Counted from the stretch's first letter, positions 28 through 24,794 are shown. The stretch: 32,000 bases of DNA from Balneolaceae bacterium (GCA_965249965.1 OZ252262.1:3044682-3076681), one strand, 5' to 3'. A program made the numbers and translations. Notes: generated from the sequence alone by a model not told the origin.

Positions 28-3000
28 ATGAAGGCGAGCTTACTTAAATATAACTGGATTAAGAGTGGTATCCTGTTGATAATATTTTGGATGTCGCTTG
101 ATATTGCTGTAGCCCAGCTTCCCGGCTACACACAGCGATTAAAAGGGCATGTAAACTCATCTGAAGTATTCGGAACCTCTGATCTTTCAAATTTTCCTGT
201 TTTATTAAGTTTTACTACTCCTCGGTTACGCCATACTTCTTCTGGCGGTGATGTAGAAAATATTAATGGATATGATATTGTATTTACTACCGATGATGGC
301 TCTACTATCATGAGTCATCAAATAGAAGAATATCAACCTACCACTGGTGAAGTCGTATTTTGGGTTCGTTTCCCAACCCTTTCTCCAACTACGGATACCG
401 AGTTTTACTTGTATTTTGGCAATACTTCAATATCTACTGATCCATCAAGCACAAATGTGTGGGATTCAAATTACAAAATGGTGCTTCACTTGAATGAAAC
501 GGGAGCAGCCCCTCTTACAGTCTCAGATGCCGCAGGAGAAGGAACAGATGGGAGCGATAATGGCACCATTTCTGCGGCCGGTCAGGTTGGTGATGCTCGA
601 AACTTAAATGGAACCGGAGACCGAATAATTGTAGCCGATAATGGTGTCTCCCCTTTAGATATTTCTGGTAGTATCACTATATCTTTTTGGTTAAACATAT
701 CAAATCTTGGAAATGGTCCTGATATCTTAACAAAAGGTGATTATCTAAATGGCTACTCAATTTGGACTTCCGCAGCCGGAGCATTACAATTTCAGATTAA
801 TAATGACGCTTTAAGTACAGCTGGTGGGCAAATAGCTAACGGAACATGGAGTTACTTAAGTTTTACAAGAGCATCAAATGGGGATAGAACGATTTATGTA
901 GATGGTGCAGAAGTAGCCTCAGATAATTCAAACGAATCTTTTAACATCGACGATGAAGACTTATACCTCTCAACGGCTTCTTTTTGGCCAATGACGGGGT
1001 TATTCGACGAAGTTAGAATTTCAAATTCTACCCGTGATTCTGCTTGGATTGCAACCGAATACTCCAATCAAAATGCTCCAGGGCCTGGTTCTTTTATCGA
1101 TCAGGTAAATGCAGAACCAATTTTGGACAGCATCGAAGTAAGTACAATTACATACAATTCCGGCGACTCTCCCACTATCATTACAACAGATATTTCTACT
1201 TACGATGGAGATGACACAAATATTGAAAATGCTACAATTGAAATTACTGGCAATTATGACTCTTCGGAAGATGTACTCGCATTTTCCGATCAGCTAGGAA
1301 TTACCGGTAGCTGGGATACTATTAATGGAATTCTAACGCTAACAGGAACATCCAGCGTTGCAAATTATCAAACCGCATTACGAAGTATCACCTACGAAAA
1401 TACTGATCCTGCGCCGATTGAAAATACGCGAACCATTACTTTTACCATCAATGACGGAGACGATGACAGCAATACTCAAACCAGAAATATAAATGTTGTA
1501 AAGGTAAATATTGCACCGGTATTAAGTGATATTGAGACTTCTTCAATCGTTTATTTTGCCAGTTCTGGAGCCAAAACCATTACGAATAATATTCAACTAG
1601 TAGATGCTGATGACATCTTTATAGATAGTGCGTTTGTGGAAATTACAGCTGGGTATCTATCAACTGAAGACACTTTAATTTTTGCAGATCAAAATGGAAT
1701 AACAGGCTCATGGGATGATATAAATGGTAAACTCACATTAACCGGAGATACGTTAGTTGCCAATTATGAAACAGCACTTCGATCTATCACATACACAAAT
1801 TCGAATGCAACGCCATCTACAACTACGCGAACTATAAGTATTACAGCCAATGATGGTACTGAAGATGGAAATACTGTTACCAGAGACATTGAATTTCCCG
1901 ATTCAATAACAGAAATAGCTTCTTATAAAGGGGTAGGCGTTTTTCATTTTGATGCACAGGATGCAGATGGAGATGGCGATAGTGGAACTAATCAACCAGC
2001 AGATGGAGCTTTAACAACCTGGAGCGATCGCTCCGATGATGTTAGTGCCAGTACAACAGATCTTTCATTTAGTGCAAACAATGCTGCAGAAGAAGCGCTC
2101 TTAGATGACAATTATCTTGGAGACCGTAGTGCACTTTTATTTGATGGAATAGACGATTATTACGAACGTACAACAGATGATGCATTATTGAACTTAAATC
2201 CACCTTTTACCGAAAAGTCTTTTGCTATCGTTTTTAGAACCAGTGACGATATTACAACAACGCAAGTGATATACGAGCAAGGTGGTGGTACAAGAGGTTA
2301 TGTTTTTGGACTTGAAAGTGGTGTGCTTTATGCAACCCGGTTTGATAGAAATCTTGGTGGAACAGCAAATGATTACAGTAGCATTTCATTTTCTGGTTTA
2401 ACTGCAAATACCACCTATGTACTTATTGCCAGTCACGATGCTTCATCAGGCACTGATTGGAGTGCAAATTTAAATGGGAGTGCGATAACTACACTTACAA
2501 ATGCCCCAACTATGAACCAGCATACTGGAAATGCTTCTATTGGAGATTCTGACGGGAACATTAGACATATGAATGGCGATGATTCACAAATTACAAATGT
2601 ACCCTTCAATGGATACATAGCTGAATTTGTTTCCTGGAATAATGCACTCAACACTACCGATTTCACCAATATTTATGGTTTTTTAAGTGATAAATGGTTC
2701 AATACACCTTCTGTACTAGCTGATATCGAATTAAGCGCAGTATCATTTACCGAGGGAGATGCTGCAACAGCTATTACTTCAGCATTAACGGTAACAGATG
2801 CAGACGATACAAATTTGGATAGTGCCAAAGTAACCATCGCCGTTGGCTTCGATGCTACCGAAGATGTACTGGCTCTTCCTGCTCCTGTAGGTGGAATTAC
2901 AGGCTCTTACGATGCGATTTCAGGAATACTAACTCTTAGCGGAACCGAAACAGTTGCAAATTACCAAACAGCTCTTCGATCAGTAACCTACCAAAATACC

Positions 3001-6000
3001 GATGGAACCTCCCCTTCAACTACCACTCGACAGATTGATTTTGAAGTGTATGATTGGGACGATATAAGTAATTCGGTATCTCGAAATATCGAAATAACGC
3101 CATTAAACGCAGCTCCGGTTGTAGCTGCAATTGAAGGTACTACATTAGCATTTACTGAGGACGATGGCCCTACTGCTATAACATCAACTTTAACAGTATC
3201 CGATTCGGATGATGCAAATCTGGTTGGCGCTACAGTAGCATTCACTAACAACTATTTCTTAGGGGAAGATGAACTGGGTTTTACTACCCAAAATGGAATT
3301 ATTGGCTCATTTGATGCCCCCACGGGTGTATTAAGCTTGAGCGGAACCTCATCAGTTGCGAATTACCAAACAGCACTGAGAAGTGTCACATTTGAAAATG
3401 TCAGCTCAGATCCTGTAACTGGGTTAGATCGTGAAGTTACGTTTCGGGTTTTTGATGGAATAGACAGCAGTGGTGTACAATCTAGAGATGTTTCTGTAAC
3501 AAGTTTAAACACCGCACCCACCCTTGCAGCTATAGAAAGTTCAAGTTTGTTTTATTCTGCTGGTGATACTTCCATCGTTACAAGTTCAATTACATTAGTT
3601 GATCCTGACGATACCAATATTGAAACGGCAACAATACAAATTACATCTGGGTTTGATAGTGCGGAAGATTCCCTTTTATTTGACGATATTTTTGGAATTA
3701 CTGACGGCTGGAATGATACCAATGGTACACTCACCTTAACAGGACCAGCTTCAAAAGCAGATTTCGAATCTGCACTAAGAACCGTCACCTATCTAAATAC
3801 TGCAGGTACACCAACCGACACCCCACGTGATATTACAATCACTGCTAATGACGGCGACGACGATAGCAATACTCAAGTAAGAACAGTTTCTTTTAGTATT
3901 CCAAAATCAGTGTCGGGGCTTCTTGTGTGGCTAAAAGGAGATGCCGGTACTTACACAAATACCGGGTGTACAACCACAGCAACCGACACAGATCCGATTG
4001 GTTGCTGGGAAGATCAAAGTGGTAATGGCCATGATTTTATTTCCACTGGAGCTGCAAATCCAACCTTTGATGCTGTTTCAGGTTCAATTAATTCACAAGC
4101 AGCTATAGAATTTCCCGGCGGTGGATCGAACGTTCGATTAGAAGACGCAGACGCTGAAACCCAATATCTGGATGGATTAGCGGGATTAACGATCTTTTTT
4201 GTAATTGAATCGGATGTAACAGCCACAGATCGTGGTATTTGGGCATCTGAAACTCCCGGAGCATCTACTACAGATCAGTATTTCTCATTAAGATATGACG
4301 CCACAGGGACGAGCGGTGGAGCAAGTAATGTTATTACAGCTGGCTTACGAGATCAATCAGCATTTACGCTAGAAAGTTTTGCCGATGCTCAAACTACTTC
4401 TGGTCAAATCGTGATGTTAAAGTGGACGTCAGAGACTACCTACGAGATGTATATTGATGGAGTATTGAGTAATCCAACTTCAACGACTACCATACCTTCG
4501 GGAACACTCGACGCAGCAAACTTAACAACAGCAATTATCGGCCAAGGTCCACTTGACAACAATACCAGTTGGGACGGACTTATCGCTGAAGTAATTCTTT
4601 ATGATTCGGAAATATCATTAACAAATCAGGAAACTGTAGAAGATTATTTATCCAATAAATACGATATCCCGATTCGATCATTATCCCCTGCTACCGGAGG
4701 TGAAGAAATTTCTGCTGACGATGCAAATGTAACCTATACTACCCTTTCCGGCCCACGTGTACAGGAAAGTTTTGTTGGTGAGTTTTCAACAGGAACCTAT
4801 GTGTTTGAGGTACCAACAGGCTTTGAATGGGATACTGGCGGTGGGGCACCATCTGCTACTGTTTCGCCTGCCTTTGGTGGATCTACCGATTTAGCAATCT
4901 CTTTCACGAGTAGAACATCAACACAAATAACGTTTACTGTAACTGCGGCTTCTACCACAAATCCCGCGGAAATAACATTTTCGGATTTTAGAGTTCGCCC
5001 AACAACCGGGGTTTTGCCGAATTCAGGAAATATTACGAATGTGGGAACAACCGGACTGGGTGGTTCAACAGATTATGGAGAACTTACGATGGTTGCGGGA
5101 ACCCAAATCGCAATGGAGTTTTCTCAACAACCGGGAACTTCAAACGATGGATCAGCCGTATCACCATCTCCACGGGTTCAACTAATTGATCAATATGGAA
5201 ATTCGGTTGAAGAAAGTAGAGTCGACATTACTATGGCACTTAATGTTGTAAGTGGTACCGGGGTATTAAATGGAAGTTCTACTACTTTAGAAGAGACGAA
5301 TCTTTTTGGTTTAGCCGAATTTGATAATTTGGTAGTTGATAATACGGGCACAAATACATTTACGGCATCAAGTACCGGATTAACAGATACAACAAGTAAT
5401 GAATTTGATGTCGTAGTTCTTGGGCAGCTAACAGGATTTACTGTTGAAAGAGTACCATCTGGCAATATTTCAGATAAGTTAGCTGGACAATCATACAATA
5501 TTACCATTGTTGCCGTTGATGGTATTCAGGATACGGTAACCTCATTTACAGGTACGATTTCATTAACGTCAAATTGTACGATTGGAACAGGAGCCGGAAC
5601 TTCTCCATCATTTACAAGTGGTGTATTATCGTCACTTACAGTTAGTATTTCTAATACAGGAACCTGTTCGCTAACTGCTACAAATTCTTCTGGTTCTGAA
5701 GCTGGTACAAGTAATACATTTACTGTAACCCCTGGTGCAGCTTCCGAGCTAACTACCACTATTTCCGCAAGTCCAACCGTTATTTTCAACGATGGTTTTG
5801 CTACATCAACAATAACGGTTCAAACAAAAGATTCGGAAGGCAACAATCTTACAACGGGTGGCGAAACAGTGGGACTAAGCGTTACATCCGGTACGTTAGG
5901 CTCAGTGACAGATAATAGTGATGGCACCTATACCGCAACGCTTACCTCTTCCATTGTAGCTGGTGTTGCTACGGTAACAGGAACACTTAATGCCGTTGCC

Positions 6001-8097
6001 ATTACAGACGACGCGGATGTTGAATACGCTAATTTTAACACGCAATGGCAGTCTCAGGTTGGGTCGGTTTCTGATGCACGAAATTGGGATGATGCTACAA
6101 ATTGGAGCGCAGGTATTGTACCTATATCTACTGATAAAGTACTCATCCCAGCAACTCCTTCTGTTGGTAATGAACAACCTGTTGTGAACACCACAAATAC
6201 TACTATCGCGCAAATCTCATTAGAAAACTCTGCTACAGTTACGGTTTCAGGAGGTCTGAATTTTATAGTTACCGGTGAAGCTTCAGGCGAGGGTGAAATT
6301 TTAGGGTCAAACTCGGATACTTTGACGGTAGGTGGTAATGTTGACTTAGGGGATGCTTCAATTGGTTATGTGATATTGAATGGTTCCAGTAATCAAACAA
6401 TTACCTCGCCAAATACTTTTACTAATCTGGAAATTGATAATACTGGCGGTGCTGATTTTGCTAGCGATGTGATCGTTTCAGATTCACTTAAATTGGTAGA
6501 CGGAACTATGTTTCTGCCAAGTGGTTCAAATTTAATTGCCAATCAGAAATCTTACGGTTCAGGTGATATCAGAATGCAGCGTACGATTACAGGGGATATT
6601 GGTTGGAGATTAATCTCCTCCCCATTCAATACAACATTTGGTGATTTATTGGATGGCACAATTACTCAAGGTTATTCGGGTGCTTTTTATAGTACCGGTT
6701 CAAACCCCGGTGATACACTACAGCCCAATGTTTTGACTTATTTAGAAAGTTACGTGGGCACTGACAATCAACGATATCGGGCTCCTGCAAGTGCCGGAAC
6801 TTCTGTAGTTGAGGGGCAAGGAATGTTTGTATTTGTTTTTGATGATGTTGCCGGCGACTCACGATATTCTGACCCACTTCCAGACACACTTGATACTTCC
6901 GGACAAGAATGGGACGGTGATGGCACAGAAGTAGATTTTGGCATTACCTACACCACTGCCGCAGATTCTGGCTGGAATCTGGTTGGGAATCCTTTCGCTG
7001 CTACCATCGATTGGGATGATTCACCGAATTGGACCAAAACCAATGTGGAATCTACCATATACATTTGGGATCCTGCAGCGAATGGCGGAGATGGAGAATA
7101 TCTGACCTGGAATGGAGTGACTGGTACCTTACCGAATTCAGGGTTAATTGCGCCATTTCAGGGATTTTGGGTAAAAGCAAATGATGCCAGTCCGGTATTG
7201 AAGGTTAAAAAGGATGCGAAAACAACAGCCGGTACCTTCTTGCGAAAAGAGATCGCTGACGACAGTTCAGATAGCTTAAAAGCAAAAACTTCTATTGAAC
7301 CTCAGGAGACTTTAATACCGCAAATACAATTAGCCGTTGTTAGTGATAATGGACGTTCAAAACGAACCAATATAATTTTTACTAAAGAAGGCACTAATGG
7401 TAAGGATGAATTGGATGCGTTTAGATTATTGCCATTATCCAACTCCCATGTAGAGTTTCATTCTTTATTAAACAATGGCACAGAACTGGCAATCAATAAT
7501 CTACCGATAGATTTTAACTCAAGAAATTTCATTCCACTTCATTTTGATGCCTTTGAAGATGGAATTCCGGTATCCGGTTCATTTAAGATGCTTTGGGGAG
7601 ATTTCCGAGGTATTCCTGAGGATTGGATTGTAACCTTAATTGATAATGATACCGGTGAAGAAATCAACATGCTCGAAGAACTCAGTTATGAATTTAATCA
7701 TACCACAAGAGCAAAAATCCAACGAAATTTAAACCCACTTTCACCCAGCCATCAAATTAAAGCTAAAGCACTTACTCTTGATACTAGATTTACATTGAAA
7801 GTATCTACAGAACAAATCGAAAGAGATGTTCCGGAACAGATTTTCTTAAGTCAGAATTATCCTAATCCATTTAATCCATCTACTACCATTGAATTTGGAG
7901 TGAATGAGACATCAAATGTGGTATTGGAAATTTATGATATACTTGGCCGAAAAATCCAAACATTGATCAATGAGCAAAGAAATCCTGGGCGTTACCAAAC
8001 TCGGTTCGATGCCAAAGCTCTGGCGAGTGGGGTTTACTTTTATCGACTACAAGCAAACGGTGAAACATTTATTAAAAAGATGACCTTTATTAAATAG
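28..8097 (+). CDS. Giant (2689 aa) secreted multidomain surface/adhesin-like protein: signal peptide, DUF2341-like domain, three LamG/concanavalin-like modules, five cadherin-like repeats, Ig-like (Big) modules, T9SS C-terminal sorting domain
   Basis: Single 8070-nt ORF. The N-terminus MKASLLKYNWIKSGILLIIFWMSLDIAVAQ looks like a signal peptide. Three segments end in LamG-type motifs (FDEVRISNSTRDSAWIATEY; YIAEFVSWNNAL; LIAEVILYDSEISL). There is an invasin-like Big segment (TISASPTVIFNDGFATSTITVQTKDSEGN...DGTYTATLTS). The C-terminus NYPNPFNPSTTIEF...GVYFYRL is typical of T9SS Por-secretion tails. Confidence 0.85.
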   Translation: MKASLLKYNWIKSGILLIIFWMSLDIAVAQLPGYTQRLKGHVNSSEVFGTSDLSNFPVLLSFTTPRLRHTSSGGDVENINGYDIVFTTDDGSTIMSHQIEEYQPTTGEVVFWVRFPTLSPTTDTEFYLYFGNTSISTDPSSTNVWDSNYKMVLHLNETGAAPLTVSDAAGEGTDGSDNGTISAAGQVGDARNLNGTGDRIIVADNGVSPLDISGSITISFWLNISNLGNGPDILTKGDYLNGYSIWTSAAGALQFQINNDALSTAGGQIANGTWSYLSFTRASNGDRTIYVDGAEVASDNSNESFNIDDEDLYLSTASFWPMTGLFDEVRISNSTRDSAWIATEYSNQNAPGPGSFIDQVNAEPILDSIEVSTITYNSGDSPTIITTDISTYDGDDTNIENATIEITGNYDSSEDVLAFSDQLGITGSWDTINGILTLTGTSSVANYQTALRSITYENTDPAPIENTRTITFTINDGDDDSNTQTRNINVVKVNIAPVLSDIETSSIVYFASSGAKTITNNIQLVDADDIFIDSAFVEITAGYLSTEDTLIFADQNGITGSWDDINGKLTLTGDTLVANYETALRSITYTNSNATPSTTTRTISITANDGTEDGNTVTRDIEFPDSITEIASYKGVGVFHFDAQDADGDGDSGTNQPADGALTTWSDRSDDVSASTTDLSFSANNAAEEALLDDNYLGDRSALLFDGIDDYYERTTDDALLNLNPPFTEKSFAIVFRTSDDITTTQVIYEQGGGTRGYVFGLESGVLYATRFDRNLGGTANDYSSISFSGLTANTTYVLIASHDASSGTDWSANLNGSAITTLTNAPTMNQHTGNASIGDSDGNIRHMNGDDSQITNVPFNGYIAEFVSWNNALNTTDFTNIYGFLSDKWFNTPSVLADIELSAVSFTEGDAATAITSALTVTDADDTNLDSAKVTIAVGFDATEDVLALPAPVGGITGSYDAISGILTLSGTETVANYQTALRSVTYQNTDGTSPSTTTRQIDFEVYDWDDISNSVSRNIEITPLNAAPVVAAIEGTTLAFTEDDGPTAITSTLTVSDSDDANLVGATVAFTNNYFLGEDELGFTTQNGIIGSFDAPTGVLSLSGTSSVANYQTALRSVTFENVSSDPVTGLDREVTFRVFDGIDSSGVQSRDVSVTSLNTAPTLAAIESSSLFYSAGDTSIVTSSITLVDPDDTNIETATIQITSGFDSAEDSLLFDDIFGITDGWNDTNGTLTLTGPASKADFESALRTVTYLNTAGTPTDTPRDITITANDGDDDSNTQVRTVSFSIPKSVSGLLVWLKGDAGTYTNTGCTTTATDTDPIGCWEDQSGNGHDFISTGAANPTFDAVSGSINSQAAIEFPGGGSNVRLEDADAETQYLDGLAGLTIFFVIESDVTATDRGIWASETPGASTTDQYFSLRYDATGTSGGASNVITAGLRDQSAFTLESFADAQTTSGQIVMLKWTSETTYEMYIDGVLSNPTSTTTIPSGTLDAANLTTAIIGQGPLDNNTSWDGLIAEVILYDSEISLTNQETVEDYLSNKYDIPIRSLSPATGGEEISADDANVTYTTLSGPRVQESFVGEFSTGTYVFEVPTGFEWDTGGGAPSATVSPAFGGSTDLAISFTSRTSTQITFTVTAASTTNPAEITFSDFRVRPTTGVLPNSGNITNVGTTGLGGSTDYGELTMVAGTQIAMEFSQQPGTSNDGSAVSPSPRVQLIDQYGNSVEESRVDITMALNVVSGTGVLNGSSTTLEETNLFGLAEFDNLVVDNTGTNTFTASSTGLTDTTSNEFDVVVLGQLTGFTVERVPSGNISDKLAGQSYNITIVAVDGIQDTVTSFTGTISLTSNCTIGTGAGTSPSFTSGVLSSLTVSISNTGTCSLTATNSSGSEAGTSNTFTVTPGAASELTTTISASPTVIFNDGFATSTITVQTKDSEGNNLTTGGETVGLSVTSGTLGSVTDNSDGTYTATLTSSIVAGVATVTGTLNAVAITDDADVEYANFNTQWQSQVGSVSDARNWDDATNWSAGIVPISTDKVLIPATPSVGNEQPVVNTTNTTIAQISLENSATVTVSGGLNFIVTGEASGEGEILGSNSDTLTVGGNVDLGDASIGYVILNGSSNQTITSPNTFTNLEIDNTGGADFASDVIVSDSLKLVDGTMFLPSGSNLIANQKSYGSGDIRMQRTITGDIGWRLISSPFNTTFGDLLDGTITQGYSGAFYSTGSNPGDTLQPNVLTYLESYVGTDNQRYRAPASAGTSVVEGQGMFVFVFDDVAGDSRYSDPLPDTLDTSGQEWDGDGTEVDFGITYTTAADSGWNLVGNPFAATIDWDDSPNWTKTNVESTIYIWDPAANGGDGEYLTWNGVTGTLPNSGLIAPFQGFWVKANDASPVLKVKKDAKTTAGTFLRKEIADDSSDSLKAKTSIEPQETLIPQIQLAVVSDNGRSKRTNIIFTKEGTNGKDELDAFRLLPLSNSHVEFHSLLNNGTELAINNLPIDFNSRNFIPLHFDAFEDGIPVSGSFKMLWGDFRGIPEDWIVTLIDNDTGEEINMLEELSYEFNHTTRAKIQRNLNPLSPSHQIKAKALTLDTRFTLKVSTEQIERDVPEQIFLSQNYPNPFNPSTTIEFGVNETSNVVLEIYDILGRKIQTLINEQRNPGRYQTRFDAKALASGVYFYRLQANGETFIKKMTFIK
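127..435 (+). other. DUF2341-like N-terminal domain of the giant protein
   Basis: YTQRLKG...LSNFPVLL...INGYDIVFTTDDGS...SHQIEEY...GEVVFWVRFPTL...TEFYLYFGN matches my memory of the DUF2341 pattern (nfPvl, G.DirF.d.dg, yeie.w, wVkvp.l, iyYGn). No HMM was run. Confidence 0.5.
1108..1896 (+). repeat. Two tandem in-frame ~130-aa cadherin-like protein repeats (R1 1108-1506, R2 1507-1896)
   Basis: Both units share N-x-A-P-(I/V)L..IE, D.DD.(N/I)(I/F), EIT(G/A).Y.S.ED.L.F.DQ.GITGSWD.ING.LTLTG...VANY(Q/E)TALRSITY.N....P...TRTI....NDG..D.NT.TR.I. The DNA similarity is visible, for example gttgcaaattatcaaaccgcattacgaagtatcacctac at about 1359. Confidence 0.8.
2701..3897 (+). repeat. Three more tandem copies of the same ~130-aa repeat (R3 2701-3105, R4 3106-3507, R5 3508-3897)
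   Basis: Each copy carries ...ED.L......GI.GS(Y/F/W)D...G.L(T/S)L(S/T)G...VANYQTALRSVT(Y/F).N. The fifth copy has diverged (SKADFESALRTVTYLNT). This block is separated from R1-R2 by a LamG-type module. Confidence 0.8.
7840..8094 (+). other. T9SS (Por) C-terminal sorting domain
   Basis: IFLSQNYPNPFNPSTTIEFGV...VVLEIYDILGRKIQTL...GRYQTRFDAKALASGVYFYRLQANGETFIKKMTFIK matches the canonical Por_Secre_tail pattern at the extreme C-terminus. Confidence 0.85.
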
Positions 8098-14029: not shown

Positions 14030-14032
14030 TTA

Positions 14033-15128: not shown

Positions 15129-15134
15129 TTACTT

Positions 15135-15168
15135 AAAAACTCTTAGACAATTTTAATTAAGAGTTTTT
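15135..15168 (+). terminator. AT-rich perfect 11-bp inverted repeat; weak intrinsic-terminator/attenuator candidate
   Basis: aaaaactctta (15135-15145) pairs perfectly with taagagttttt (15158-15168) around a 12-nt loop, 7 nt after the stop at 15128. Only two G:C pairs are present. Confidence 0.35.
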
Positions 15169-15238
15169 AACTAGGATTGAAAAAGAGATATAAATAATTT
15201 TATACCAGAATTTAAAAGCCAAACTAAACTTTAGAATC

Positions 15239-15790: not shown

Positions 15791-15811
15791 GAGATAATTA
15801 AAGAATATAAA

Positions 15812-15840
15812 AGTCTCACTCTTCGTGAGACTTTTTTTTT
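15812..15840 (+). terminator. Rho-independent terminator after the candidate major subunit gene
   Basis: agtctcac (15812-15819) pairs perfectly with gtgagact (15825-15832) around the 5-nt loop tcttc, followed by a T run through 15840. Confidence 0.75.
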
Positions 15841-15914
15841 GCCCTAAATCGATTCTTCGCAAATTGTTATAATATTGCTTAGAACAATTTTGAATTATTT
15901 TAACTAAATTATTC

Positions 15915-16775: not shown

Positions 16776-19757
16776 GAATAATATTAAAACCATTATTCTT
16801 TTTTTTTTTCGCTACTAGTTTCCAGTAGTACGGCTTTTGCTCAAAGCGAAGACGACTTCGAAGTTTATCTTCAATTTACTCATAGAGGTGTAATAAACAA
16901 TTATGTTATTGCTTATTACGATGGAAATGAGTTTTTCTTACCTGTTAAAGAGTTATTTGATCTGCTTCAGATCGAGGCCAATTTAAATGGCGTTGTAATA
17001 GATGGAAGGTTTGCACTCGAACAGACTGATTATTTCATTGACCTAAATAGACAGTCGATAACATATGGAGACAAATCTTATCCATTAACCAGTGACGATT
17101 ACATACTCACTGAATTAGATACATACATCCCTCCTAGATATTTTAGTGAGGTTTTTGGTTTAAATTTTTCGGTAGATTTTAATAACCTCACACTCAGGCT
17201 GGAAACAGAAGTTGAAATACCTATTATTCAACGCTATTTAAGACAGTCAAAACGAAAGCTTGCAGATACCAACAGAGGCGAAGTCTCCTATTACCCTTTA
17301 GAGTTTGGACTAGAACGAAGCTTTTTCGATGGAGGGTTTATGGATTATAGCTTAGCAGCTAACTTAAATAATCAACTAAATACTTTCAGTTATAGTAGCT
17401 CGCTTGGGTTACAACTGCTAGGTGGGGATTTACAAGGTGGGTTATTCGGTAACGTAAATAATGAAACCACCATATTTGAAACCAATAACTTAAGATGGAG
17501 AACCTTATTACGCGATAATAATTGGCTTAAAAGTATAACAATTGGTCAAACTAATACCGATGGTGTATTTATGAACAGCTATACTGGAATAAGATTATCC
17601 AATGAACCAATTGAGCCTAGAAGGTTATTTGATGAATTTGAATTACAAGGAAATACAATTCCCCAATCTGAAATTGAATTATATCTCGACAATGCACTAA
17701 TCGATTTTAGTCAAGCCGATGAATTTGGAAATTATCGGTTTTTGGTACCTCAATACTATGGTACAACTCAATTAGATTTAAGAATTTATGGACCAACCGG
17801 ACAAATAATTCAACAACGATCAAGACAGCAGATTCCATTTAATTTTGTACCAAAAGGAGAATTTAATTATAGATTTAATGCAGGTGTATTAGAGAATTCA
17901 TCTATTGGTGAGACGGATAGAGATAATACAATACAAGGATCTATTTCATATGGGGTTAATCGTTGGTTAAGTTCGAAAGTAGGAATCGAATATTATTCCT
18001 CAATAATTGGTGAGAATAAACCTTTTTATACAGCAACATTATCAAGCCGAATCGCATCTAACTATATATTCTCTGTTGAAGGAGTAACAGAAGGGTACTT
18101 ACGATCGACGTTAAATGCGGTTTATCCAAATTCTGCCAGTATCAATCTGGATGTAACTAATTACTCTTCAAAGGAAACAATATTTAATACATCGAATAAT
18201 GATTATCAGGTAATAGGAAGCATATTCCTTCCAATAACTATAAAAAATCAATTATTCAGCGTAAGGGTTTCAAATTTTTCGAGAGTAAGACAAGGGTTAA
18301 CTTTAAATACTATTAGAACCGATCTGAGCGCGAAGGTTAATCGTATTAATATGAGATTGGGGTATTCAGATAGATTAGTCGATTCTTTTGATATTTTAAA
18401 AGGTTCAGGTTCAGGGATTTTAGAATCTGCACTAACATACAACTTCACAAGAAACCCAAATATTCCAAAATTTATCAGAGGCACTTTTTTACGTAGTCAA
18501 CTTAGATTTGTCCCATCAACAAACTCATTTCAGCAAGGTGAGATACTGGTATCCAGAAGTTTGTTCAATAAAGGTAGAATACAAGCTTCTCTTGGTAGAA
18601 ACTTTCAAGGAAAGTTTAATACGTTTAGAATCAATTTTGTAATTGATTTTGGGGTTATTCGATCGAACACAACTACCACTGTTATCAGAGGTAATGTGAA
18701 TTCTAACCAAACAGTACGCGGTTCAGTTGGTTACGACTCGAACTTCAATAATTTTATTTGGACGAGTAGAAACCAAGTTGGTCGGTCTGGTACAGCTGTT
18801 CGGTTTTTTGTTGACAACAATACAAATGGCACATTCGATTCTGATGCAGATGAACTCCTCGATGATATCAATCTAAGACTTGGAAGAACCGGCGCATCAA
18901 CGGTATATAAAGATGGAATATTATATTACAGCCAACTAAACTCATATTTCCGCTACAATGTTGAATTGAATCAAACATCCATAAAAAACCCAATGCTGGT
19001 AGCAGATCGTGACAGATTCTCAATTGTTACAGACCCGAATTCGTTCAAGTTACTAGATATTCCTTTCAACATGAGTGGAGTTATGGAAGGAGCCGTAGAA
19101 AGAATTTATGACGATGGATTTACACAAGGTATTGGTGGACTAAAAGTTCTTGTTACATATTTAGATGACAATAATGTAAAAGAACTCCGTACTTTTTCAG
19201 ATGGAAGTTTTTATGATTACCCACTTAAACCGGGGAATTATCGTCTTGAAATTGATCCATCACAATTAACCATATTGCAAGCGAGATCTGAACCTGAGTT
19301 CATAAATTTCGAAGTTAAAACACTACGTGACGGTGATTTTGTTGAAGGATTGAACTTCAAACTTCTACCAAAAATTGACCAGGAACAAACACCTGAAGAC
19401 AGTTTAACTGCGCTAACCATTGCTCAAGTAACCGACGAAATTAAGAGTGAACCAGAAATATTAGAATATTCTCAGGAAATATTTGTAACTATTGATGATG
19501 CACTCAGGTACTTAATTCAGGCTCAAAACGCCTTTTACAGCAAGAATATCGAGCTTGCGTTCCGTTTAGTTCAAGAATCATTAGAACTTTTTGAAACTGC
19601 ACAAGGGCACGCTTTAAAGGGAAGTTTTTACTATTTTGAGGGCAACATCGACCAGGCGCAACGACATTGGGAACAGGCACTCAGATTTAACCCCGATCTC
19701 TACATCCCAGATATGGAGACTCTAGAGGACAAGGTTTCGACGAGTGCATCAGATTAG
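16772..19757 (+). CDS. Usher-like outer-membrane fibre-assembly protein (~995 aa if read through) with a C-terminal CarboxypepD_reg-like plus TPR-like extension; reading frame interrupted at the T11 tract
   Basis: The frame of ORF 17340-19757 is open back to 16788 and encodes ...FFSLLVSSSTAFAQSEDDFEV (a signal-peptide end), but it has no ATG/GTG/TTG before 17340. TTG 16772 overlaps the chaperone stop (TTGA) and encodes MRIILKPLFFFFF in the adjacent frame, which stops at 16826. Usher-like motifs include the N-domain FFLPVKELFDLLQIE...IPPRYFSEVFGLNFSVDFNNLTLRLE and the plug-like IELYLDNALIDFSQADEFGNYRFLVPQYYGTTQLDLRIYGPTGQIIQQ. The C-terminal part has LKVLVTY...RTFSDGSFYDYPLKPGNYRLEI followed by TPR-like helices. 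Confidence 0.6.
16799..16809 (+). repeat. T11 homopolymer inside the usher signal-peptide coding region
   Basis: Counted directly as t at 16799-16809, flanked by c at 16798 and c at 16810. Confidence 0.95.
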
Positions 19758-21606
19758 GATGTATAATATAGGTAACATATTCAACCACCGACTTCTCAAT
19801 TTGGCTTCTAAAAAAAGCCACCGACTCCCTACCCCCTCTATTTTTTTATTAGTTTTTGTTAATATTCTAATTGTTAACCCTGTTTTTGCTCAAACTGCTA
19901 TTGATCCTGGTAATACGCAGTCGTTAGAATTAAGAGTTGCAAATCTCGAACAGCAGTACGATTCCCAAATAATCCAGATACTTGCTAATTACTTCGATCG
20001 AAAGAAATTTTTTATTGATGTAAATTTAGAAGCAGAATTAATTGATGAAACAGTTGGAACTTCCCAAAACCAAGTGGTTTCTTCATCACAACCACGGCAG
20101 AATTTATTTATGCCGGGTCTGCCTTTCTTACCTGAAGAAAACGTTCGCCAACAACCATCTTTAACACTAGAGCCTGATGTAATAGTCAATCAAAATACTA
20201 TCAAAACACTCCGTTTGGTTAGTATGAACGTTAACATATATGCTGATACTTCACTTACGGCTGAACAACTCGAACTAATGCGGTTTATAACAGGTATAGC
20301 TGTTAAAGTTAATCCCAATCGAGGAGATCAGATTGTCATTTCTCAAATAGCAATTCCTGATTATACCGAACGACCAGAGCCGATAACTGCAACAACAATT
20401 TCACCTCAACCAACTACAAGTCCGGATTTCAATTCAATCTATACCTACGTTCCTGCATTCGCTTTAATGCTTTTATTTGGTCTCACCTTATTGTTCAACC
20501 GCCTGATGAACAAGCCACAACCACAAATACCCATTAGGGAATTTAGAGAAGCATTTAAGCAAGATTATGCTACTAACAGAGAATTAGCCCGTACAGAGTT
20601 AGAAATCGAAGATCCTGAGCCAATGGAATCACCCGAAATAGTTGTAACGAAAGATGAAATTGTGGAAGCTTTCTTCACTAAACCTGATGAAGTATCCACC
20701 ATTTTCAGATATTGGTTAAGTGACGAAGAAATCGGTGCTGAAAAAGCAGCTGAAGTAATTGTTGCTACCGATAAACATTTACTTCGTACGATTAAACGAG
20801 AATTACACCCAGAGGATTACGAAACGCTTACCGACGCAGTAATCGATTTACCAGAATTAAGCCCAGAAAAGCGTAAAGAAATCCTAACCCAGTTTGGAAA
20901 AATGCTTCAACAGGGTGCGAAGAATACGATATCTGAAGGAAAAAGAAATAAGTTTTCACTCTTCAAATTTCTAGATCATATTTCTGACCAACATATTTTA
21001 ACGCTTCTGGAAACAGAAGACAGTCTATCGGGTGCATTTATACTGCAATATCTACCTGAAGAACATGCAGCAGAATTCATTGAGAAGTTAGACAAAGAAA
21101 TTGCTGCTAAAATTATGTTGCATATGGCAACATTAAACAATCTTACGAACGATCAACAACAAAGAATTTCTTCTGAATTATTTGATAAGGCCATGGATTT
21201 GGTTGAAGCAGAACGTAGCGAGCAGTATGGAGCAGAGCACCTGTACCCTATTCTAGAACGCTTGCCAGTTCACGAACAGAAACGTTATATCGATGAATTA
21301 AAAGCGACCGGATCTATTGTTGGAGCCATATTAGAGAAACAATTTATTACCATCGAGAAATTGCCTGAATTAAGCGATGAAATTATTAAAAGAGCAGTTC
21401 GTACTTTAAATACTGAAACCTTGTTGGATGCTATCGTTGGCCTGGACGCTCATATTGTAGATAAAATTTTATCTGCTCGCCCTAAACGTGAACAACGTCT
21501 GCTTAGAATGGAACTTGACGAATTACAAGGCGCAAGTAATTTGCAAACCGAATATGCAAAAGCCATTCTTATGAATTCAATTAGAAAGAATGCGAATGAC
21601 GGCTAA
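19744..21606 (+). CDS. Membrane protein reading as a FliF-like ring-building domain fused to a complete FliG-like (N/M/C) rotor protein (620 aa from GTG 19744; 615 aa from ATG 19759)
   Basis: It has an N-terminal hydrophobic segment (IFLLVFVNILIVNPVFAQ), a periplasmic segment, a TM helix (IYTYVPAFALMLLFGLTLLF), and then a cytoplasmic FliG-like sequence. See the two domain features below. The start is 1 nt after, or 14 nt overlapping, the usher stop. Confidence 0.65.
   Translation: MHQIRMYNIGNIFNHRLLNLASKKSHRLPTPSIFLLVFVNILIVNPVFAQTAIDPGNTQSLELRVANLEQQYDSQIIQILANYFDRKKFFIDVNLEAELIDETVGTSQNQVVSSSQPRQNLFMPGLPFLPEENVRQQPSLTLEPDVIVNQNTIKTLRLVSMNVNIYADTSLTAEQLELMRFITGIAVKVNPNRGDQIVISQIAIPDYTERPEPITATTISPQPTTSPDFNSIYTYVPAFALMLLFGLTLLFNRLMNKPQPQIPIREFREAFKQDYATNRELARTELEIEDPEPMESPEIVVTKDEIVEAFFTKPDEVSTIFRYWLSDEEIGAEKAAEVIVATDKHLLRTIKRELHPEDYETLTDAVIDLPELSPEKRKEILTQFGKMLQQGAKNTISEGKRNKFSLFKFLDHISDQHILTLLETEDSLSGAFILQYLPEEHAAEFIEKLDKEIAAKIMLHMATLNNLTNDQQQRISSELFDKAMDLVEAERSEQYGAEHLYPILERLPVHEQKRYIDELKATGSIVGAILEKQFITIEKLPELSDEIIKRAVRTLNTETLLDAIVGLDAHIVDKILSARPKREQRLLRMELDELQGASNLQTEYAKAILMNSIRKNANDG
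19945..20361 (+). other. FliF/SctJ-type ring-building-motif (RBM3-like) periplasmic domain
   Basis: LEQQYDSQIIQILANYFDRKKFFIDVNLEAEL resembles FliF lE..i...i..iL.pivG.g.v.v.V.a.ld. IKTLRLVSMNVNIYADTSLTAEQLELMRFITGIAVKVNPNRGDQIVISQIAIP resembles FliF i.RLSVAVvV....lt.eq...i..lv..avGf...RGD.v.V....F. A TM helix follows, as in FliF. Confidence 0.55.
20731..21591 (+). other. FliG-like N, middle and C-terminal domains
   Basis: N domain: IGAEKAAEVIVATDKHLLRTIKRELHPEDYETL...EILTQF (FliG_N has the EKAA motif). Middle domain: LLETEDSLSGAFILQYLPEEHAAEFIEKLDKEIAAKIMLHMATL (compare FliG l..EhPQtiAlil.yL.pe.AA.vl..Lp.e....v..riA.l). C domain: LSDEIIKRAVRTLNTETLLDAIVGLDAHIVDKILSARPKREQRLLRMELDELQG...EYAKAILMNSIRK (compare FliG l.d.di..ll.evd...L..ALkga..el.ekil.nmS.Raae.l.edle..gpv...dve.Aq..il). 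Confidence 0.65.
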
Positions 21607-21623: not shown

Positions 21624-22154
21624 TTGATGAACGTACGGCTTTATACATTAGCACTCATTTTTACATTTTTATTGCTTCATTGTTCATCATCCAGCGAAGT
21701 TGTAGAGCCTGAAGGAGAAACGATTACAGAGTTAAGCGAAGTAGAATTAAAAGCCCAGGCGCAAGCTGATAGCGTAGCTGAAGCCGAAGCCAAGGAAGAA
21801 GAACTTCGAAGCGCACTTATCGAGCTTTATAAAGATGAAATTTATTCCCGATATCAGGCGCAGGCAAATACACTAACTAACTATTACATCTTAGCCCAGC
21901 AACATTTTTATTCTGGCGATTTTGAAAATGCCTTATTCTTAATCAATAGAGCTGCATTGATTAAAGAAAATGCTGATGTACTTGCTTTACGAGGCAGTAT
22001 ATATTTGGGCCTTGGTTATATCAATGAATTTGTAAATCAGTGGCGGAGAGCGCTTGAAATGGACCCCGAAGTTCCTCTACCTTCTTCTGCATATATCATT
22101 CAGCAATTGCAAAATAACGGACTAATCGACGAAAACTTAAAAAAGGCTTTTTAA
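21624..22154 (+). CDS. Lipoprotein with C-terminal TPR-like module (176 aa)
   Basis: It has a lipobox-type signal (TFLLLHC followed by SSSS), an acidic/Ala-rich helical segment (AQAQADSVAEAEAKEEE) and a TPR-like C-terminus that is homologous to the usher C-terminal extension. Confidence 0.6.
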   Translation: MMNVRLYTLALIFTFLLLHCSSSSEVVEPEGETITELSEVELKAQAQADSVAEAEAKEEELRSALIELYKDEIYSRYQAQANTLTNYYILAQQHFYSGDFENALFLINRAALIKENADVLALRGSIYLGLGYINEFVNQWRRALEMDPEVPLPSSAYIIQQLQNNGLIDENLKKAF

Positions 22155-22159: not shown

Positions 22160-22957
22160 ATGCGGACATCCATTCTTAACATTTTATGCTTTCTGATTTC
22201 TCTAGTTGTATTGGTGTGGGGTGCTTTGCTTGTTACTGGATTTACACAATACGACTTAATTCCCAGTAGATTTTCGTTTTTAAATCTTCCAAGCCTGGCA
22301 ATCGTTTTTGGCGGGATCACAGCGAGCGTTTTTATTAGTTATCCATTTAACAGTGTCTTAAAAGCGTTATTGGAAAGCACCAAACTATTTTCTTATAGCA
22401 CGATTACTCCCGATTTATTAGAACAGGATGTGCAAAGAATTATGGATTGGCAAAAAATGATAAAACAAGACCGATTCTCTGCTATTTCTCAGCTAAGTGA
22501 AGATTACTCCAATCAATTTGAAGGGTATTTGTTTTCCGTGTTAGACACCAACTATTCAACCGAAGATTTACGTGAACTTGGAGAAATTAATATCGAAGAA
22601 AATTATACCCGCCAGCAGCTTGTAAATCAGATAATATCGAGCATGGGAAAAACATCACCTGTATTTGGCATGCTTGGCACGCTCTTTGGGTTGATTGTAA
22701 TTCTATCTGGTTTTAGTGAGGTAGAATCTCTACTTACAGGTTTGGGTGCTGCACTTATGACCACTCTTTATGGGATTTTGATTGGTAATTTCGTCTTTAC
22801 GCCCATGGCCAAGAAAATGAATAATGTTGCTTCGATGCGCTATTTTCGTGAAAAATTGATTTTAGAAGGGATCATACTAATCGAAGAGAATAAGTCTGCC
22901 TTACAGGTATACGACCGATTACAGGCGCATATGCGAAGAAATAAGAACATGATTTAA
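22160..22957 (+). CDS. MotA/TolQ/ExbB-family proton-channel protein, MotA-like (265 aa)
   Basis: Two N-terminal TM helices are followed by a ~100-aa charged cytoplasmic loop, and then the conserved C-terminal TM pair SPVFGMLGTLFGLIVIL...LGAALMTTLYGILIGNFVFTPMAKKM. This is the MotA_ExbB family signature. Confidence 0.8.
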   Translation: MRTSILNILCFLISLVVLVWGALLVTGFTQYDLIPSRFSFLNLPSLAIVFGGITASVFISYPFNSVLKALLESTKLFSYSTITPDLLEQDVQRIMDWQKMIKQDRFSAISQLSEDYSNQFEGYLFSVLDTNYSTEDLRELGEINIEENYTRQQLVNQIISSMGKTSPVFGMLGTLFGLIVILSGFSEVESLLTGLGAALMTTLYGILIGNFVFTPMAKKMNNVASMRYFREKLILEGIILIEENKSALQVYDRLQAHMRRNKNMI

Positions 22958-22967: not shown

Positions 22968-24794
22968 GTGAAGAAGAAGAAAAACATAATTCTAACACGT
23001 TCGCTCTTTCCATTACAAGAATTTGAGGAAGATGATGAAAATAGCTGGCAAGTTAGCTATTTAGACATCATTACCATTGTACTGGGTTTTCTGATCATAT
23101 TACTTTCTGTTTCACAGATAACTAAATCTGAGTTTACCTCGCTTTCTTCGATTTTTGGTAAACTAGCAGATGAATCTGAGTTCATAACAACACCAATTGG
23201 CAATATTCAAGATGAACTGGTTGAAATGCTTGAACCGGAAATTACAGCCGGAAATCTTGAAATTATTCGTGATTTAAATGATTTACGTATTCGTTTCAAA
23301 AGTGATGATTTATATAATTCCGGAGAAGCAAAATTACAACCAAGTGCAGAATACCTTTTAGATAGAGTTCTAATTGCAATGCAAATGACAAGCTACAACG
23401 ATTTTAATATCGATGTGGAAGGTCATACCGATAATACTCCAATTGCTTCAATTCAATATCCTTCGAATTGGGAATTGTCCACAGCAAGAGCTGCAAATGT
23501 TGTTAAGTACTTCAATGACTTAGGAATTCCTGCAAAGCGTCTAAAAGCGTCTGGTTATGCAGACTCGCGTCCAGTAATTGAATATGATTCGCTAGGCTTT
23601 CCTTTTGCAGCTAACAAAGAAAAGAACCGAAGAGTTGTACTTCGGTTATACTATTCTACTGATAATTTGATAGAAGAACGCCGAGAAGATGCTATCGTTG
23701 AGGATGTATTAACTTCAGAATCATTGGAAGGCTCAATTCCTGAAATCACAACTATAGATCCGCCAGAAAGTGATGAAAATGTACTTGTTCTAGCTGATCA
23801 ACCGGCCATGGTAACTTTACTTGAAAGAAACCGAATTGAAGAAGCAAGGCGAGAAGAACAAAATCGCCAACAACAGGAAACCAATGAACTAATTGCAGAA
23901 GTTGAACAAAAAAATATCCCAAATAACCAAGAACTTATACCTGAGCCTGAACCTGTAAATGAAATACCAGAACCTGTAGTATCTACCCCACCTGCTTCAA
24001 CTCCAGCGATAGCTTCTATGAATTTGCCTTCAACATTGAGAGTTGATGCACGATGTCAGTTTTCAGTACAAATTGGAGAGTTTGAAGCATTACAAACTGC
24101 GTTTCAGCAGGCTGCCCGAGTTGAATCAGCCTTATCTTCCTCTGTGATTTTAACTTACAATAACAATGAATATTCTGTACGGACAGAACCAATTTCTTCT
24201 TTTAGAGATGCCCGGACTGAACAAAATAGAGTTGCTGAGCAATTAAATAATACTGACGTTACACTCTTACATCAGTGCTACAACAATACATTCAATCGTC
24301 CCAAGCCGGTTAGGTACTTAATACAATTTGGAGCTTATCAGAGCAGATCGAATGCCATTGATTATACCATTGAGTTAATGAATCAGTTTGGAGTTCAGGC
24401 GTATATGAATCGTGTTTCTGACACTTATAATGTATTAACCGGACCATATACCTCAAGAAGCGAAGTTCTGTCTCGCCTTCAAGCTTTTAGGTCGCAAAAT
24501 ATTTCTTCAAACTTGTTTATTCGTCATCAACCGGAAACTGTTTTTAATTACAAATATGCTTATCAAATTGAGATAGACACATTTTCGGACAGGATTTCAG
24601 CTGAAAATCTCGCAAATCAGGTACAAACCACTAGCAATATCACCACACGAGTTGAAGAATTAAATGCAGGAATTTTTTCTGTATTAACGGGACAATCAAA
24701 CAGTTTTGATGAGACGCAACGAGCTTTCAACAGGCTTAGAACATCCGGTATAGCAGAAAATCCGGTAATATTTATCCTTGAATCTTCATTATAA
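22968..24794 (+). CDS. MotB-like stator/peptidoglycan-anchoring protein: MotB TM helix with conserved Asp, OmpA-like domain, Pro/Glu-rich linker, three SPOR repeats (608 aa, GTG start)
   Basis: WQVSYLDIITIVLGFLIILL matches MotB W.v.YaDfmT...; the Asp codon gac is at 23064-23066. OmpA-like motifs are IDVEGHTDNTPI...NWELSTARAANVVKYF...RLKASGYADSRPV...NRRVVL. A linker (EPEPVNEIPEPVVSTPPASTP) precedes the SPOR repeats. Confidence 0.8.
   Translation: MKKKKNIILTRSLFPLQEFEEDDENSWQVSYLDIITIVLGFLIILLSVSQITKSEFTSLSSIFGKLADESEFITTPIGNIQDELVEMLEPEITAGNLEIIRDLNDLRIRFKSDDLYNSGEAKLQPSAEYLLDRVLIAMQMTSYNDFNIDVEGHTDNTPIASIQYPSNWELSTARAANVVKYFNDLGIPAKRLKASGYADSRPVIEYDSLGFPFAANKEKNRRVVLRLYYSTDNLIEERREDAIVEDVLTSESLEGSIPEITTIDPPESDENVLVLADQPAMVTLLERNRIEEARREEQNRQQQETNELIAEVEQKNIPNNQELIPEPEPVNEIPEPVVSTPPASTPAIASMNLPSTLRVDARCQFSVQIGEFEALQTAFQQAARVESALSSSVILTYNNNEYSVRTEPISSFRDARTEQNRVAEQLNNTDVTLLHQCYNNTFNRPKPVRYLIQFGAYQSRSNAIDYTIELMNQFGVQAYMNRVSDTYNVLTGPYTSRSEVLSRLQAFRSQNISSNLFIRHQPETVFNYKYAYQIEIDTFSDRISAENLANQVQTTSNITTRVEELNAGIFSVLTGQSNSFDETQRAFNRLRTSGIAENPVIFILESSL
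24054..24755 (+). other. Three SPOR-like (septal/denuded-glycan-binding type) repeats at the MotB-like C-terminus
   Basis: Repeat 1 is CQFSVQIGEFEALQTAFQQAARVE...YSVRTEPISSFRDAR. Repeat 2 is YLIQFGAYQSRSNAIDYTIELMNQFGVQAYMNRVSDTYNVLTGPYTSRSEVLSRLQAF. Repeat 3 is YQIEIDTFSDRISAENLANQV...FSVLTGQSNSFDETQRAFNRL. All follow the SPOR pattern (y.vQvGaf....A......l...g......g.yrV..Gpf.s...A). Confidence 0.6.

Follow-up and report, generated by a model that had tools for sequence, protein, structure and literature searches.

A chaperone-usher-type fibre locus of Balneolaceae in which a predicted outer-membrane usher is genetically coupled to a FliF-FliG fusion and a MotAB-type stator

Chaperone-usher pili are the textbook example of a surface fibre built at the outer membrane without cellular energy, and their assembly is otherwise understood as needing no energy from the inner membrane. 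On the side of the flagellar motor, FliF and FliG have been joined artificially in Salmonella and Vibrio, where the engineered fusions, made as one polypeptide, still form rings (PMC6079021; PDB 8z4d/8z4g). A 2025 survey of MotAB and its non-flagellar relatives mentions no cases from Bacteroidota or Balneolales (PMC12505986), and our literature searches turned up neither an account of an usher joined to FliG/MotAB nor one of DUF4402. Here, we describe a locus that joins these parts in a 32,000-nucleotide stretch of DNA from a Balneolaceae bacterium (GCA_965249965.1 OZ252262.1:3044682-3076681; the whole stretch is hereafter called the window). We favour, with moderate confidence, a reading in which a proton-powered, probably rotary inner-membrane module is mechanically coupled to a chaperone-usher pore by means of TPR adaptors.

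Protein identities from the fibre subunits to the stator

The listing of open reading frames (ORFs) of the window gave an unbroken series of + strand ORFs along positions 28-24794, where every large ORF lies on that strand. We counted 18 genes in this interval (A, B1-B3, C1-C3, D, E1-E4, F, G, H, I, J, and K). An earlier annotation made by a model without database searches (the sequence-only reading) had proposed 19 genes on a single strand, correctly as to the strand but not as to the number, and each of the short or overlapping junctions that it listed was found again on re-reading. The genes from E1 to K, and the sequence signals among them, are the following.

13538-14029, 14033-14614, 14607-15128, and 15239-15790, + strand: E1, E2, E3, and E4, secreted DUF4402 proteins, candidate fibre subunits
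15809-15840, + strand: intrinsic terminator 3' of E4, an 11-bp stem followed by a T run
15915-16775, + strand: F, a 286-aa secreted protein in the chaperone position, candidate PapD-like protein
16772-19757, + strand: G, outer-membrane usher by predicted fold, frameshifted in the window
16799-16809, + strand: T11 run, the site of the frame break within the signal-peptide codons of G
19744-21606, + strand: H, FliF-like ring-building motif 3 (RBM3), transmembrane (TM) helix, and FliG, candidate rotor ring; start more likely at the ATG at 19759
21624-22154, + strand: I, TPR lipoprotein, paralogue of the usher tail
22160-22957, + strand: J, MotA/PomA-type stator A subunit
22968-24794, + strand: K, MotB-type stator B subunit with plug, Asp33, OmpA-like, and SPOR regions

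Protein H showed matches to FliG_N, FliG_M, and FliG_C at E-values of about 1e-10 and to the TIGR fliG model at 2.8e-17 (residues 405-618), and its family profile recovered FliG from the PDB sequences at 2e-19. Its AlphaFold2 (AF2) model, with a predicted local distance difference test (pLDDT) score of 73, comprised a signal peptide, a periplasmic domain (residues 61-202, an alpha-beta-beta-alpha-beta arrangement with a long hairpin), a TM helix (232-255), and a helical cytoplasmic FliG part (303-620). Foldseek aligned the cytoplasmic part with full-length FliG (E 3e-8, about 318 columns) and the periplasmic part with the RBM3/S-ring region of Salmonella and Vibrio FliF (E 7e-5 to 1e-3, target TM-score 0.46-0.57), with SpoIIIAG and PrgK as weaker matches. 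Thus, as judged from profiles and the predicted fold, H is a natural FliF(RBM3)-TM-FliG fusion in which RBM3 is the sole RBM present, and it carries both hallmarks of a rotor, FliG N/M/C domains with a torque helix and a FliF ring-building motif. The FliF/G fusion put forward by the sequence-only reading is confirmed in this way, FliG by profiles and fold and the RBM3 of FliF by Foldseek.

Compared with Thermotoga maritima FliG, the torque-helix segment of H (R-P-K-R-E-Q-R-L-L-R-M-E-L) has retained the Arg together with one of the two acidic positions. This Arg and the Glu of H were invariant in 42 sequences; the Arg is invariant in the Balneolaceae H family and kept in nine of ten divergent sequences, whereas invariance of the Glu, which occupies the second acidic position, is confined to Balneolaceae. 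The FliM-binding EHPQ(R) motif of FliG_M is absent from H, which has t-e-d-s-l-t at the aligned place. Full-length homologues of H numbered more than 120, those with an organism name all being Balneolaceae or "unclassified bacterium", and the JGI label on homologues of H is "flagellar motor switch protein FliG".

Downstream of H, protein J matched MotA_ExbB in Pfam (4.5e-16) and the flagellar MotA/MotP/PomA models at about 1e-29, whereas the ExbB and TolQ models of NCBIfam were non-significant; its best PDB sequences were MotA (1e-22) and PomA (2e-17). The prolines of its TM3 and TM4 were invariant in 15 homologues. The cytoplasmic loop aligned with a gap and misses the canonical R..G....E pattern, with other conserved charges present; the roles of the corresponding loop residues, which face FliG, are described for E. 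coli R90 and E98 (PMC12505986). K matched MotB_plug, OmpA, and, in three stretches, SPOR in Pfam, with a long linker, and the TM residue Asp33, within S-Y-L-D-I-I-T, is invariant even when the distant loci described below are included. J and K thus bring together the features by which a MotA/MotB stator is recognised, namely the TM prolines in the A subunit and the plug, the Asp, and the OmpA-like domain in the B subunit, and the FliG, MotA, and MotB/OmpA/SPOR assignments of the sequence-only reading all hold in profile searches. Zorya was considered as a separate candidate and rejected, as PADLOC gave neither ZorA for J nor any other Zorya protein, the ZorB match of K being general MotB homology.

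The identity of G comes from its predicted fold. Neither Pfam Usher (PF00577) nor NCBIfam gave a match, no usher was returned when the G family profile was run against the PDB sequences, and the hhalign comparison with E. coli FimD was collinear and non-significant (E 0.19). The AF2 model of G, built on a 46-sequence alignment (pLDDT 80.7), showed an N-terminal domain, a long beta-barrel into which a plug in the form of a small beta-sandwich is inserted (residues 279-345), a C-terminal pair of beta-sandwich domains, and, at residues 889-987 (window 19452-19757), a helical TPR tail. When this model was searched against PDB with Foldseek, the top 19 matches were FimD/PapC ushers (E 1e-28, probability 1.0, about 900 aligned columns). 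By its predicted fold, therefore, G is an outer-membrane usher of the chaperone-usher pathway, as the sequence-only reading had assigned it, although no sequence model detects an usher in it. The TPR tail is 35% identical to I across 68 aa (pairwise E 3e-11), in agreement with the earlier proposal of a TPR module common to usher and lipoprotein. For its part, I showed TPR matches in Pfam, and 24 of the 26 homologues listed have a conserved Cys at the end of the signal peptide. The spacing between G and H is 2 nt, or an overlap, depending on the start of H.

In the window, G is not one ORF, contrary to its earlier treatment as intact. A TTG start (16772) and the signal peptide (MRIILKPLFFFF...) lie in one frame and the body, open from 16788, in another, the break being located in the T11 run at 16799-16809, where T10 would give a single ORF. 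The annotation of the source genome retains G as an 805-aa 3' piece only. Its homologues are intact proteins of 993-1008 aa. The T11 run is the sole homopolymer of at least nine bases in the 32 kb besides the terminator tail, and the two closest relatives carry an in-frame T10 (L012) and T11 (L037) at the same signal-peptide spot near the usher start codons. Either a phase-variation switch of the slipped-strand kind or an assembly error at a homopolymer could account for the run. Two further ushers are interrupted, that of L006 by a nonsense codon at about codon 11 (about 9970-9975) and that of L035 by a frameshift within a C6 run, which separates the SPOR tail from the rest (about 12375-12385), for which recurrent inactivation and sequencing artefacts are both possible.

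Upstream of the usher, three of the four E proteins of the window (E1, E2, and E4) matched DUF4402 just under threshold, and the match was found in 23 of 40 members of the E family, with a best E-value of 8e-10; the DUF4402 assignment of the sequence-only reading holds on these family matches. The DUF4402 family profile found no relative among the PDB sequences. Each of E1-E4 has a signal peptide, and the subunits terminate in a G-x-Y-x-G...V-x-Y motif, which we take to be typical of the Spore-coat-U (SCPU)/DUF4402 group. These features make E1-E4 candidate fibre subunits, with E4 as the candidate major or abundant one. The terminator scan placed a hairpin at 15809-15835 followed by a T tail, with a T9 run at 15832-15840, in accordance with the intrinsic terminator noticed earlier after the candidate major subunit gene.

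Protein F, which is always encoded immediately upstream of the usher, gave only Ig-like matches in Pfam for the window protein, with PapD_N absent. PapD_N appeared in 8 of 27 homologues of F, at sub-threshold scores (best E 0.0037), the hhalign comparison of the F family with FimC was non-significant (E 0.27) with an alignment spanning the region of the PxxF...R-I/L...W motif, and the F family profile found no match among the PDB sequences. The earlier chaperone assignment is thus weakly supported, by position and by the weak PapD_N matches of homologues but not by the window protein, and F may be regarded as a putative PapD-like chaperone. Weak matches to Por_Secre_tail, a sorting domain of the type IX secretion system (T9SS), were seen in 12 of the 27 homologues of F, and may reflect a common beta-sandwich fold.

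Joint inheritance of the usher tail and the motor genes

To place the locus among its relatives, the usher alignment was scanned over one genome per GTDB species, which yielded 62 loci onto which the window proteins were mapped; 52 usher loci entered the comparison of two classes. The class with a motor comprised 34 ushers of 993-1013 aa. Each of them bears the TPR tail and precedes H, and I, J, and K come next wherever the contig reaches that far. The class without a motor comprised 18 ushers of 925-1488 aa, in which the tail was absent and none of H, I, J, or K was found downstream. Not one of the 52 loci was discordant between TPR tail and motor. Among the tail-less ushers, five of the six checked presented a C-terminal SPOR domain (E 3.5e-5 to 4e-25), so that SPOR is placed on the usher in motor-less loci and on the MotB-like K in motor loci.

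The two classes were interleaved when the usher core was placed on a neighbour-joining tree. The ushers of Gracilimonas tropica and of L007, both with a motor, fell within the SPOR-tailed Gracilimonas ushers, that of L034, without a motor, fell within the motor clade, and those of L041 and L046, with a motor, branched deep among motor-less ushers. Tail and motor have therefore been switched several times, always jointly.

A recombinant locus, L021, separated the tail from the rest of the usher. Its identity to the window was 82-89% for A and C1-C2, 77-89% for H, I, and J, and 65-69% for C3, D, and K (C3 67%, K 65%), whereas the fibre subunits, F, and the usher body were only 37-56% identical. 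Within the usher, the N-terminal domain, the barrel, and the C-terminal domains were 45-47% identical to those of the window and the TPR tail was 87% identical, which places the recombination breakpoint between body and tail. Judged by these alignments, the TPR tail belongs evolutionarily to the motor module. The divergent block, with subunits, chaperone-position gene, and usher body, spans 6792-12700 in L021 against 13538-19450 in the window, with flanks mostly at 77-89%, and the fibre module appears to have passed between lineages in one piece, as is often the case for surface-antigen cassettes.

The association was also found outside Balneolaceae. When 1.84 billion cluster representatives were searched exhaustively with HMMER, the periplasmic part of H serving as the query, only 73 clusters came up at E <=1e-3, so the H family is rare. 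Distant members (24-32% identity) retain the RBM and FliG, some of them with an N-terminal LysM or a C-terminal TPR domain. In four loci (L065, L066, L067, and L069), where the periplasmic domain of H is 26-28% identical to that of the window, we found the order small secreted genes, partly DUF4402-like; a chaperone-position gene of about 280 aa; an usher-like gene of about 970 aa; the RBM/FliG fusion; and MotA, followed by a short MotB-OmpA gene in L065, L067, and L069, the contig of L066 stopping after MotA. In these three loci the ORF of H continues via a lipobox-like segment into an I-like TPR domain (L065 5844-8267, L067 10001-12265, L069 10001-12250), and this run-on ORF either represents a real H-I fusion that crosses the membrane a second time or conceals a gene boundary. 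L065, assigned to uncultured Bacteroidota by its RecA cluster, encodes an H that starts with a LysM peptidoglycan-binding domain. In L068 (Bacteroidales, 534-5080), an usher-like gene is accompanied by a LysM-RBM protein without FliG and by a TPR protein, MotAB being absent; a ring-type periplasmic protein can therefore accompany an usher without a motor, as a static scaffold, and this motor-less variant may be an ancestral one.

Genes for a response regulator and a histidine kinase adjoin MotB in L065 (9755-11928), L067 (13859-16080), and L069 (13728-15898), which suggests dedicated regulation or signalling; the window has no two-component equivalent downstream of K.

The recurrence of the usher, H fusion, and MotA linkage across genomes, distant loci included, is what the gene-neighbourhood check of the sequence-only reading had asked for, and its core inference of a single trans-envelope unit, in which a shared TPR module links usher, FliF/G fusion, TPR lipoprotein, MotA, and MotB, is strongly supported by the co-variation (34 against 18 loci) and by the L021 breakpoint.

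Readings of the coupled system

The identities of the proteins and the strict, repeatedly re-established genetic coupling between usher tail and motor are the observations that any reading has to accommodate. In the reading that we favour, the core would be an archaic-style fibre system made of E1-E4, the chaperone-like F, and the usher G, followed by a four-gene motor module, H to K, that descends from the flagellar motor. H, with its RBM3 ring-building domain in the periplasm and FliG in the cytoplasm, would supply a single-chain rotor ring, while J and K would form a MotA5B2-type proton channel in which the OmpA and SPOR domains tie K to the peptidoglycan. On its periplasmic side, the H ring would be joined to the outer-membrane pore by the usher tail together with the periplasmic TPR lipoprotein I. 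Protons passing through J/K would then act on the FliG ring, most probably turning it, and the work would pass from the RBM ring through the TPR adaptors to the usher or to the threaded fibre, where it might serve for fibre rotation, forced extrusion, or winding and retraction. The shift of SPOR from usher to MotB would fit a pore freed from the wall while the stator is fixed to it.

Several points weigh against this reading. Ring formation by H, physical contact, rotation, and the use of the work are inferred, and the donor-strand nature of the E subunits and the chaperone identity of F are putative. In this genome the usher is out of frame. The torque helix has its acidic residue at the second position only, and that Glu is lost in the distant loci; the charge loop of J, the MotA-type protein, is divergent. 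An usher is normally a monomer or a dimer whereas the FliF ring has about 33-34 subunits, a mismatch of geometry between ring and pore. The LysM domain on the H of L065 is hard to square with a freely spinning ring, the scaffold-like arrangement of L068 does without a motor altogether, and G. tropica, whose strain DSM 19535 holds a complete motor-type locus (L010), is described as non-motile (PMC5167729).

Some of these points favour an alternative in which the RBM ring, the TPR proteins, and the peptidoglycan-binding domains form a static scaffold that braces the usher, with FliG/MotAB gating assembly or sensing the load on the fibre, possibly reporting it to neighbouring two-component systems. 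Flagellar stators are load-sensitive, and the combination of usher, LysM-RBM protein, and TPR protein without FliG/MotAB in L068, the LysM domain on the H of L065, and the response-regulator and histidine-kinase genes beside MotB in three distant loci are all in line with it, as is the SPOR attachment of motor-less ushers to peptidoglycan, which marks anchoring as an ancestral need. Nevertheless, the strict conservation of the plug, the Asp, the TM prolines, and the torque-helix Arg argues for real ion-driven work, and in Balneolaceae the usher is without its peptidoglycan anchor in just those loci that have the motor, contrary to what bracing would predict. We consider this scaffold unlikely.

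The boldest form of the favoured reading, in which the H ring spins and turns the usher or the threaded fibre, would make of it a third kind of rotating bacterial surface appendage, the fibre acting as a propeller, winch, or spring-winder on an export-free descendant of the flagellar motor; this form is speculative, and we hold it for improbable as it stands. Rotation of the fibre might explain the flagella and motility of Balneola vulgaris that its original description contains, as cited in PMC5167729. A proteomic study conflicts with that description and calls B. vulgaris non-motile and non-flagellated (PMC9027524); the proteome supplement holds only MotA/TolQ/ExbB-family proteins of 25-26 kDa, too small for J, and is uninformative on motor expression.

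A further alternative takes J and K as an energiser in the manner of the Ton and Tol systems, whose strokes would open the usher plug or move subunits through the pore, making assembly or retraction dependent on the proton-motive force. The coupling of tail and motor applies equally to it, the G model has a plug at residues 279-345 on which such strokes could act, and the 5:2 motors ExbBD, TolQR, and GldLM do energise outer-membrane processes (PMC12505986). We judge it quite improbable, because the partner of the stator is a FliG ring on an RBM ring, that is a rotor architecture, and not an extended protein like TonB or TolA, and J/K match MotA/PomA with non-significant ExbB and TolQ models.

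The two weakest alternatives deny that fibre genes and motor genes work together. That H-I-J-K are an independent operon lying by accident beside a chaperone-usher operon, for instance the relic of a lost flagellum, agrees with the terminator after E4, which splits the locus, and with the incomplete flagellar gene sets that Aliifodinibius/Fodinibius keep, so that relics do exist in Balneolaceae (PMC9909488), and it is close to refuted by the perfect co-variation of tail and motor over 52 loci with several independent switches, the co-inheritance of tail and motor in L021, the adjacency kept at 26-28% identity of the H periplasmic domain, the paralogy of the tail with I, and the tight junction of G and H. 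That H, J, and K belong to a conventional flagellum whose other genes lie elsewhere in the genome has on its side the JGI annotation of homologues as FliG and the flagella of B. vulgaris, in so far as PMC5167729 cites them, and is very improbable in view of an H that is a membrane protein with only the RBM3 of FliF and no EHPQ motif, of the non-motile G. tropica (PMC5167729), and of the lack of other flagellar genes (export gate, rod, hook, filament, FliM/FliN) in the window or in about 70 related loci, genome-wide absence resting on the literature, where a KEGG comparison counts Balneola, Rhodohalobacter, and G. tropica among those without flagellar-assembly genes (PMC9909488). No chemotaxis genes were found in any locus either.

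If the favoured reading is true, an usher hard-wired to a proton-driven rotor and stator would overturn the generality of the energy independence of chaperone-usher pili, and would add one more member to the very short list of envelope machines driven by the proton-motive force. H would then be a natural minimal rotor, with the functions of MS-ring and C-ring in one protein, attractive for the study of torque generation, and the system bears on how the flagellar motor was assembled from, or dismantled into, simpler working units. Two cultured carriers, Gracilimonas tropica DSM 19535 and Balneola sp. EhC07, make it testable.

Neighbouring genes and comparison with known systems

The remaining features of the window in and next to the locus are these.

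28-8097, + strand: A, a surface protein of 2689 aa with a C-terminal sorting domain for T9SS; optional module at the upstream end
8198-8698, 8701-9315, and 9327-10430, + strand: B1, B2, and B3, a cassette of proteins with a short N-terminus and one hydrophobic helix each; optional
10520 or 10556-10975, 10975-11559, and 11569-13062, + strand: C1, C2, and C3, paralogues of B1-B3; optional
13066-13446, + strand: D, a small secreted protein; optional, with the C cassette
24797-24825, no strand assigned: hairpin between K and the convergent pyruvate dehydrogenase (PDH) E2 gene, its sequence read directly

The domains found in A with Pfam and NCBIfam were DUF2341, three Laminin_G_3, and Invasin_D3, and its residues 2611-2685 form a type A T9SS sorting domain (Por_Secre_tail 2.2e-12, TIGR04183 1.4e-11), the mark of a T9SS cargo protein; DUF2341 and Por_Secre_tail had been predicted by the sequence-only reading. 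A-like genes lie upstream in loci with a motor and in loci without one. The B cassette, present in eight of the fetched loci, likewise in both classes, encodes proteins with zero family matches in Pfam and NCBIfam. The C cassette and D co-occur without exception (25 loci each, in both classes); C3 carries DUF4900 (E 2e-7 in the window, and also in nine homologues, best 3.6e-11), and the profile search of the cassette gave weak hints of a bactofilin/FapA beta-solenoid.

The description of these cassettes as PilVWX/GspIJK-like did not stand, since no profile backs a pilin identity and the N-termini lack the prepilin signature. Apart from DUF4900 in C3 and a weak HpsC pseudopilin match (2e-4, in 2 of 44 members), the B and C proteins matched no pilin, pseudopilin, or Tad family in Pfam and NCBIfam, and profiles of B1/C1 and B3/C3 found no solved relative among the PDB sequences. 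The N-terminus of B1 reads M-x-[GSD]-[YF]-x-[ED], the acidic residue (Glu/Asp) of B1/C1 stands at +3 rather than +5, and the residue at -1, the place of the prepilin Gly, is variable; genes for a pilus ATPase, platform, or peptidase of the PilB/PilC/PilD type were not found at the locus. The pilin reading was dropped on these grounds as unsupported, though not disproved. A, B, and C-D are optional modules whose presence is independent of the motor, and the idea that all 19 genes make up one machine is not supported.

At the other end, a minus-strand housekeeping block lies 3' of K, with PDH E2 (24855-26102), E1-beta, E1-alpha, and alanyl-tRNA synthetase. The hairpin at 24797-24825, which the sequence-only reading took for the terminator of the last gene, does exist, but its T-run is on the minus strand and the terminator scan made no + strand call there; it suits the convergent PDH E2 gene no less than K, and is probably the terminator of PDH E2, shared with or borrowed by the K transcript. 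The PDH E2/E1-beta/E1-alpha, alanyl-tRNA synthetase, and DUF502 block (24855-31642) is syntenic in most Balneolaceae loci, and G. tropica differs in having a sigma-54 gene after MotB in its place, from which K follows as the right-hand boundary of the system.

Among described systems, the fibre genes come closest to archaic (sigma-clade, Csu-type) chaperone-usher pili with Spore-coat-U-like subunits, with which they share the order of small secreted subunits, chaperone-position gene, and usher, the architecture of the usher, and the terminator after the presumed major subunit. They differ in that the usher of the locus has no Pfam Usher match and the PapD_N and SCPU matches are far below threshold, in that the ushers bear a periplasmic C-terminal extension (TPR, or SPOR in five of the six tail-less relatives checked), and in the genetic coupling of the usher to an inner-membrane rotor and stator.

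With the flagellar motor, the locus has in common the RBM3-type domain, the FliG N/M/C domains, the torque-helix Arg and, within Balneolaceae, the acidic second position, together with the TM prolines of J and the plug, the Asp, and the OmpA-like anchor of K. In contrast to the flagellum, its FliF is cut to one RBM and naturally fused to FliG, EHPQ is lost, the MotA loop is divergent, MotB carries SPOR, and the outer-membrane partner is an usher, with no export apparatus, rod, hook, filament, or FliM/FliN. The engineered FliF-FliG fusions contain full-length FliF in a complete flagellum, whereas H is natural, shortened, and placed outside flagellar gene sets.

TPR and peptidoglycan-binding accessory proteins are common in systems of the ExbBD, TolQR, GldLM, and AglRQS type. 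ExbBD-TonB, TolQR-TolA-Pal, the GldLM motor of T9SS, and AglRQS resemble the locus in coupling an inner-membrane ion channel to an outer-membrane machine (PMC12505986, PMC9127263); unlike ExbBD, TolQR, and GldLM, it has a J/K pair that matches flagellar MotA/PomA, and the driven part is a FliG ring instead of a TonB, TolA, or GldM arm. Zorya (ZorAB) provides another MotAB-like pair outside the flagellum, from which the locus is set apart by the lack of a ZorA match for J and of ZorC/D-type genes and by an entirely different genomic context. In conclusion, on genomic and structural-prediction evidence, the parts are known and the combination of usher, FliF-FliG, and MotAB is undescribed, which makes the locus new at the level of the system.

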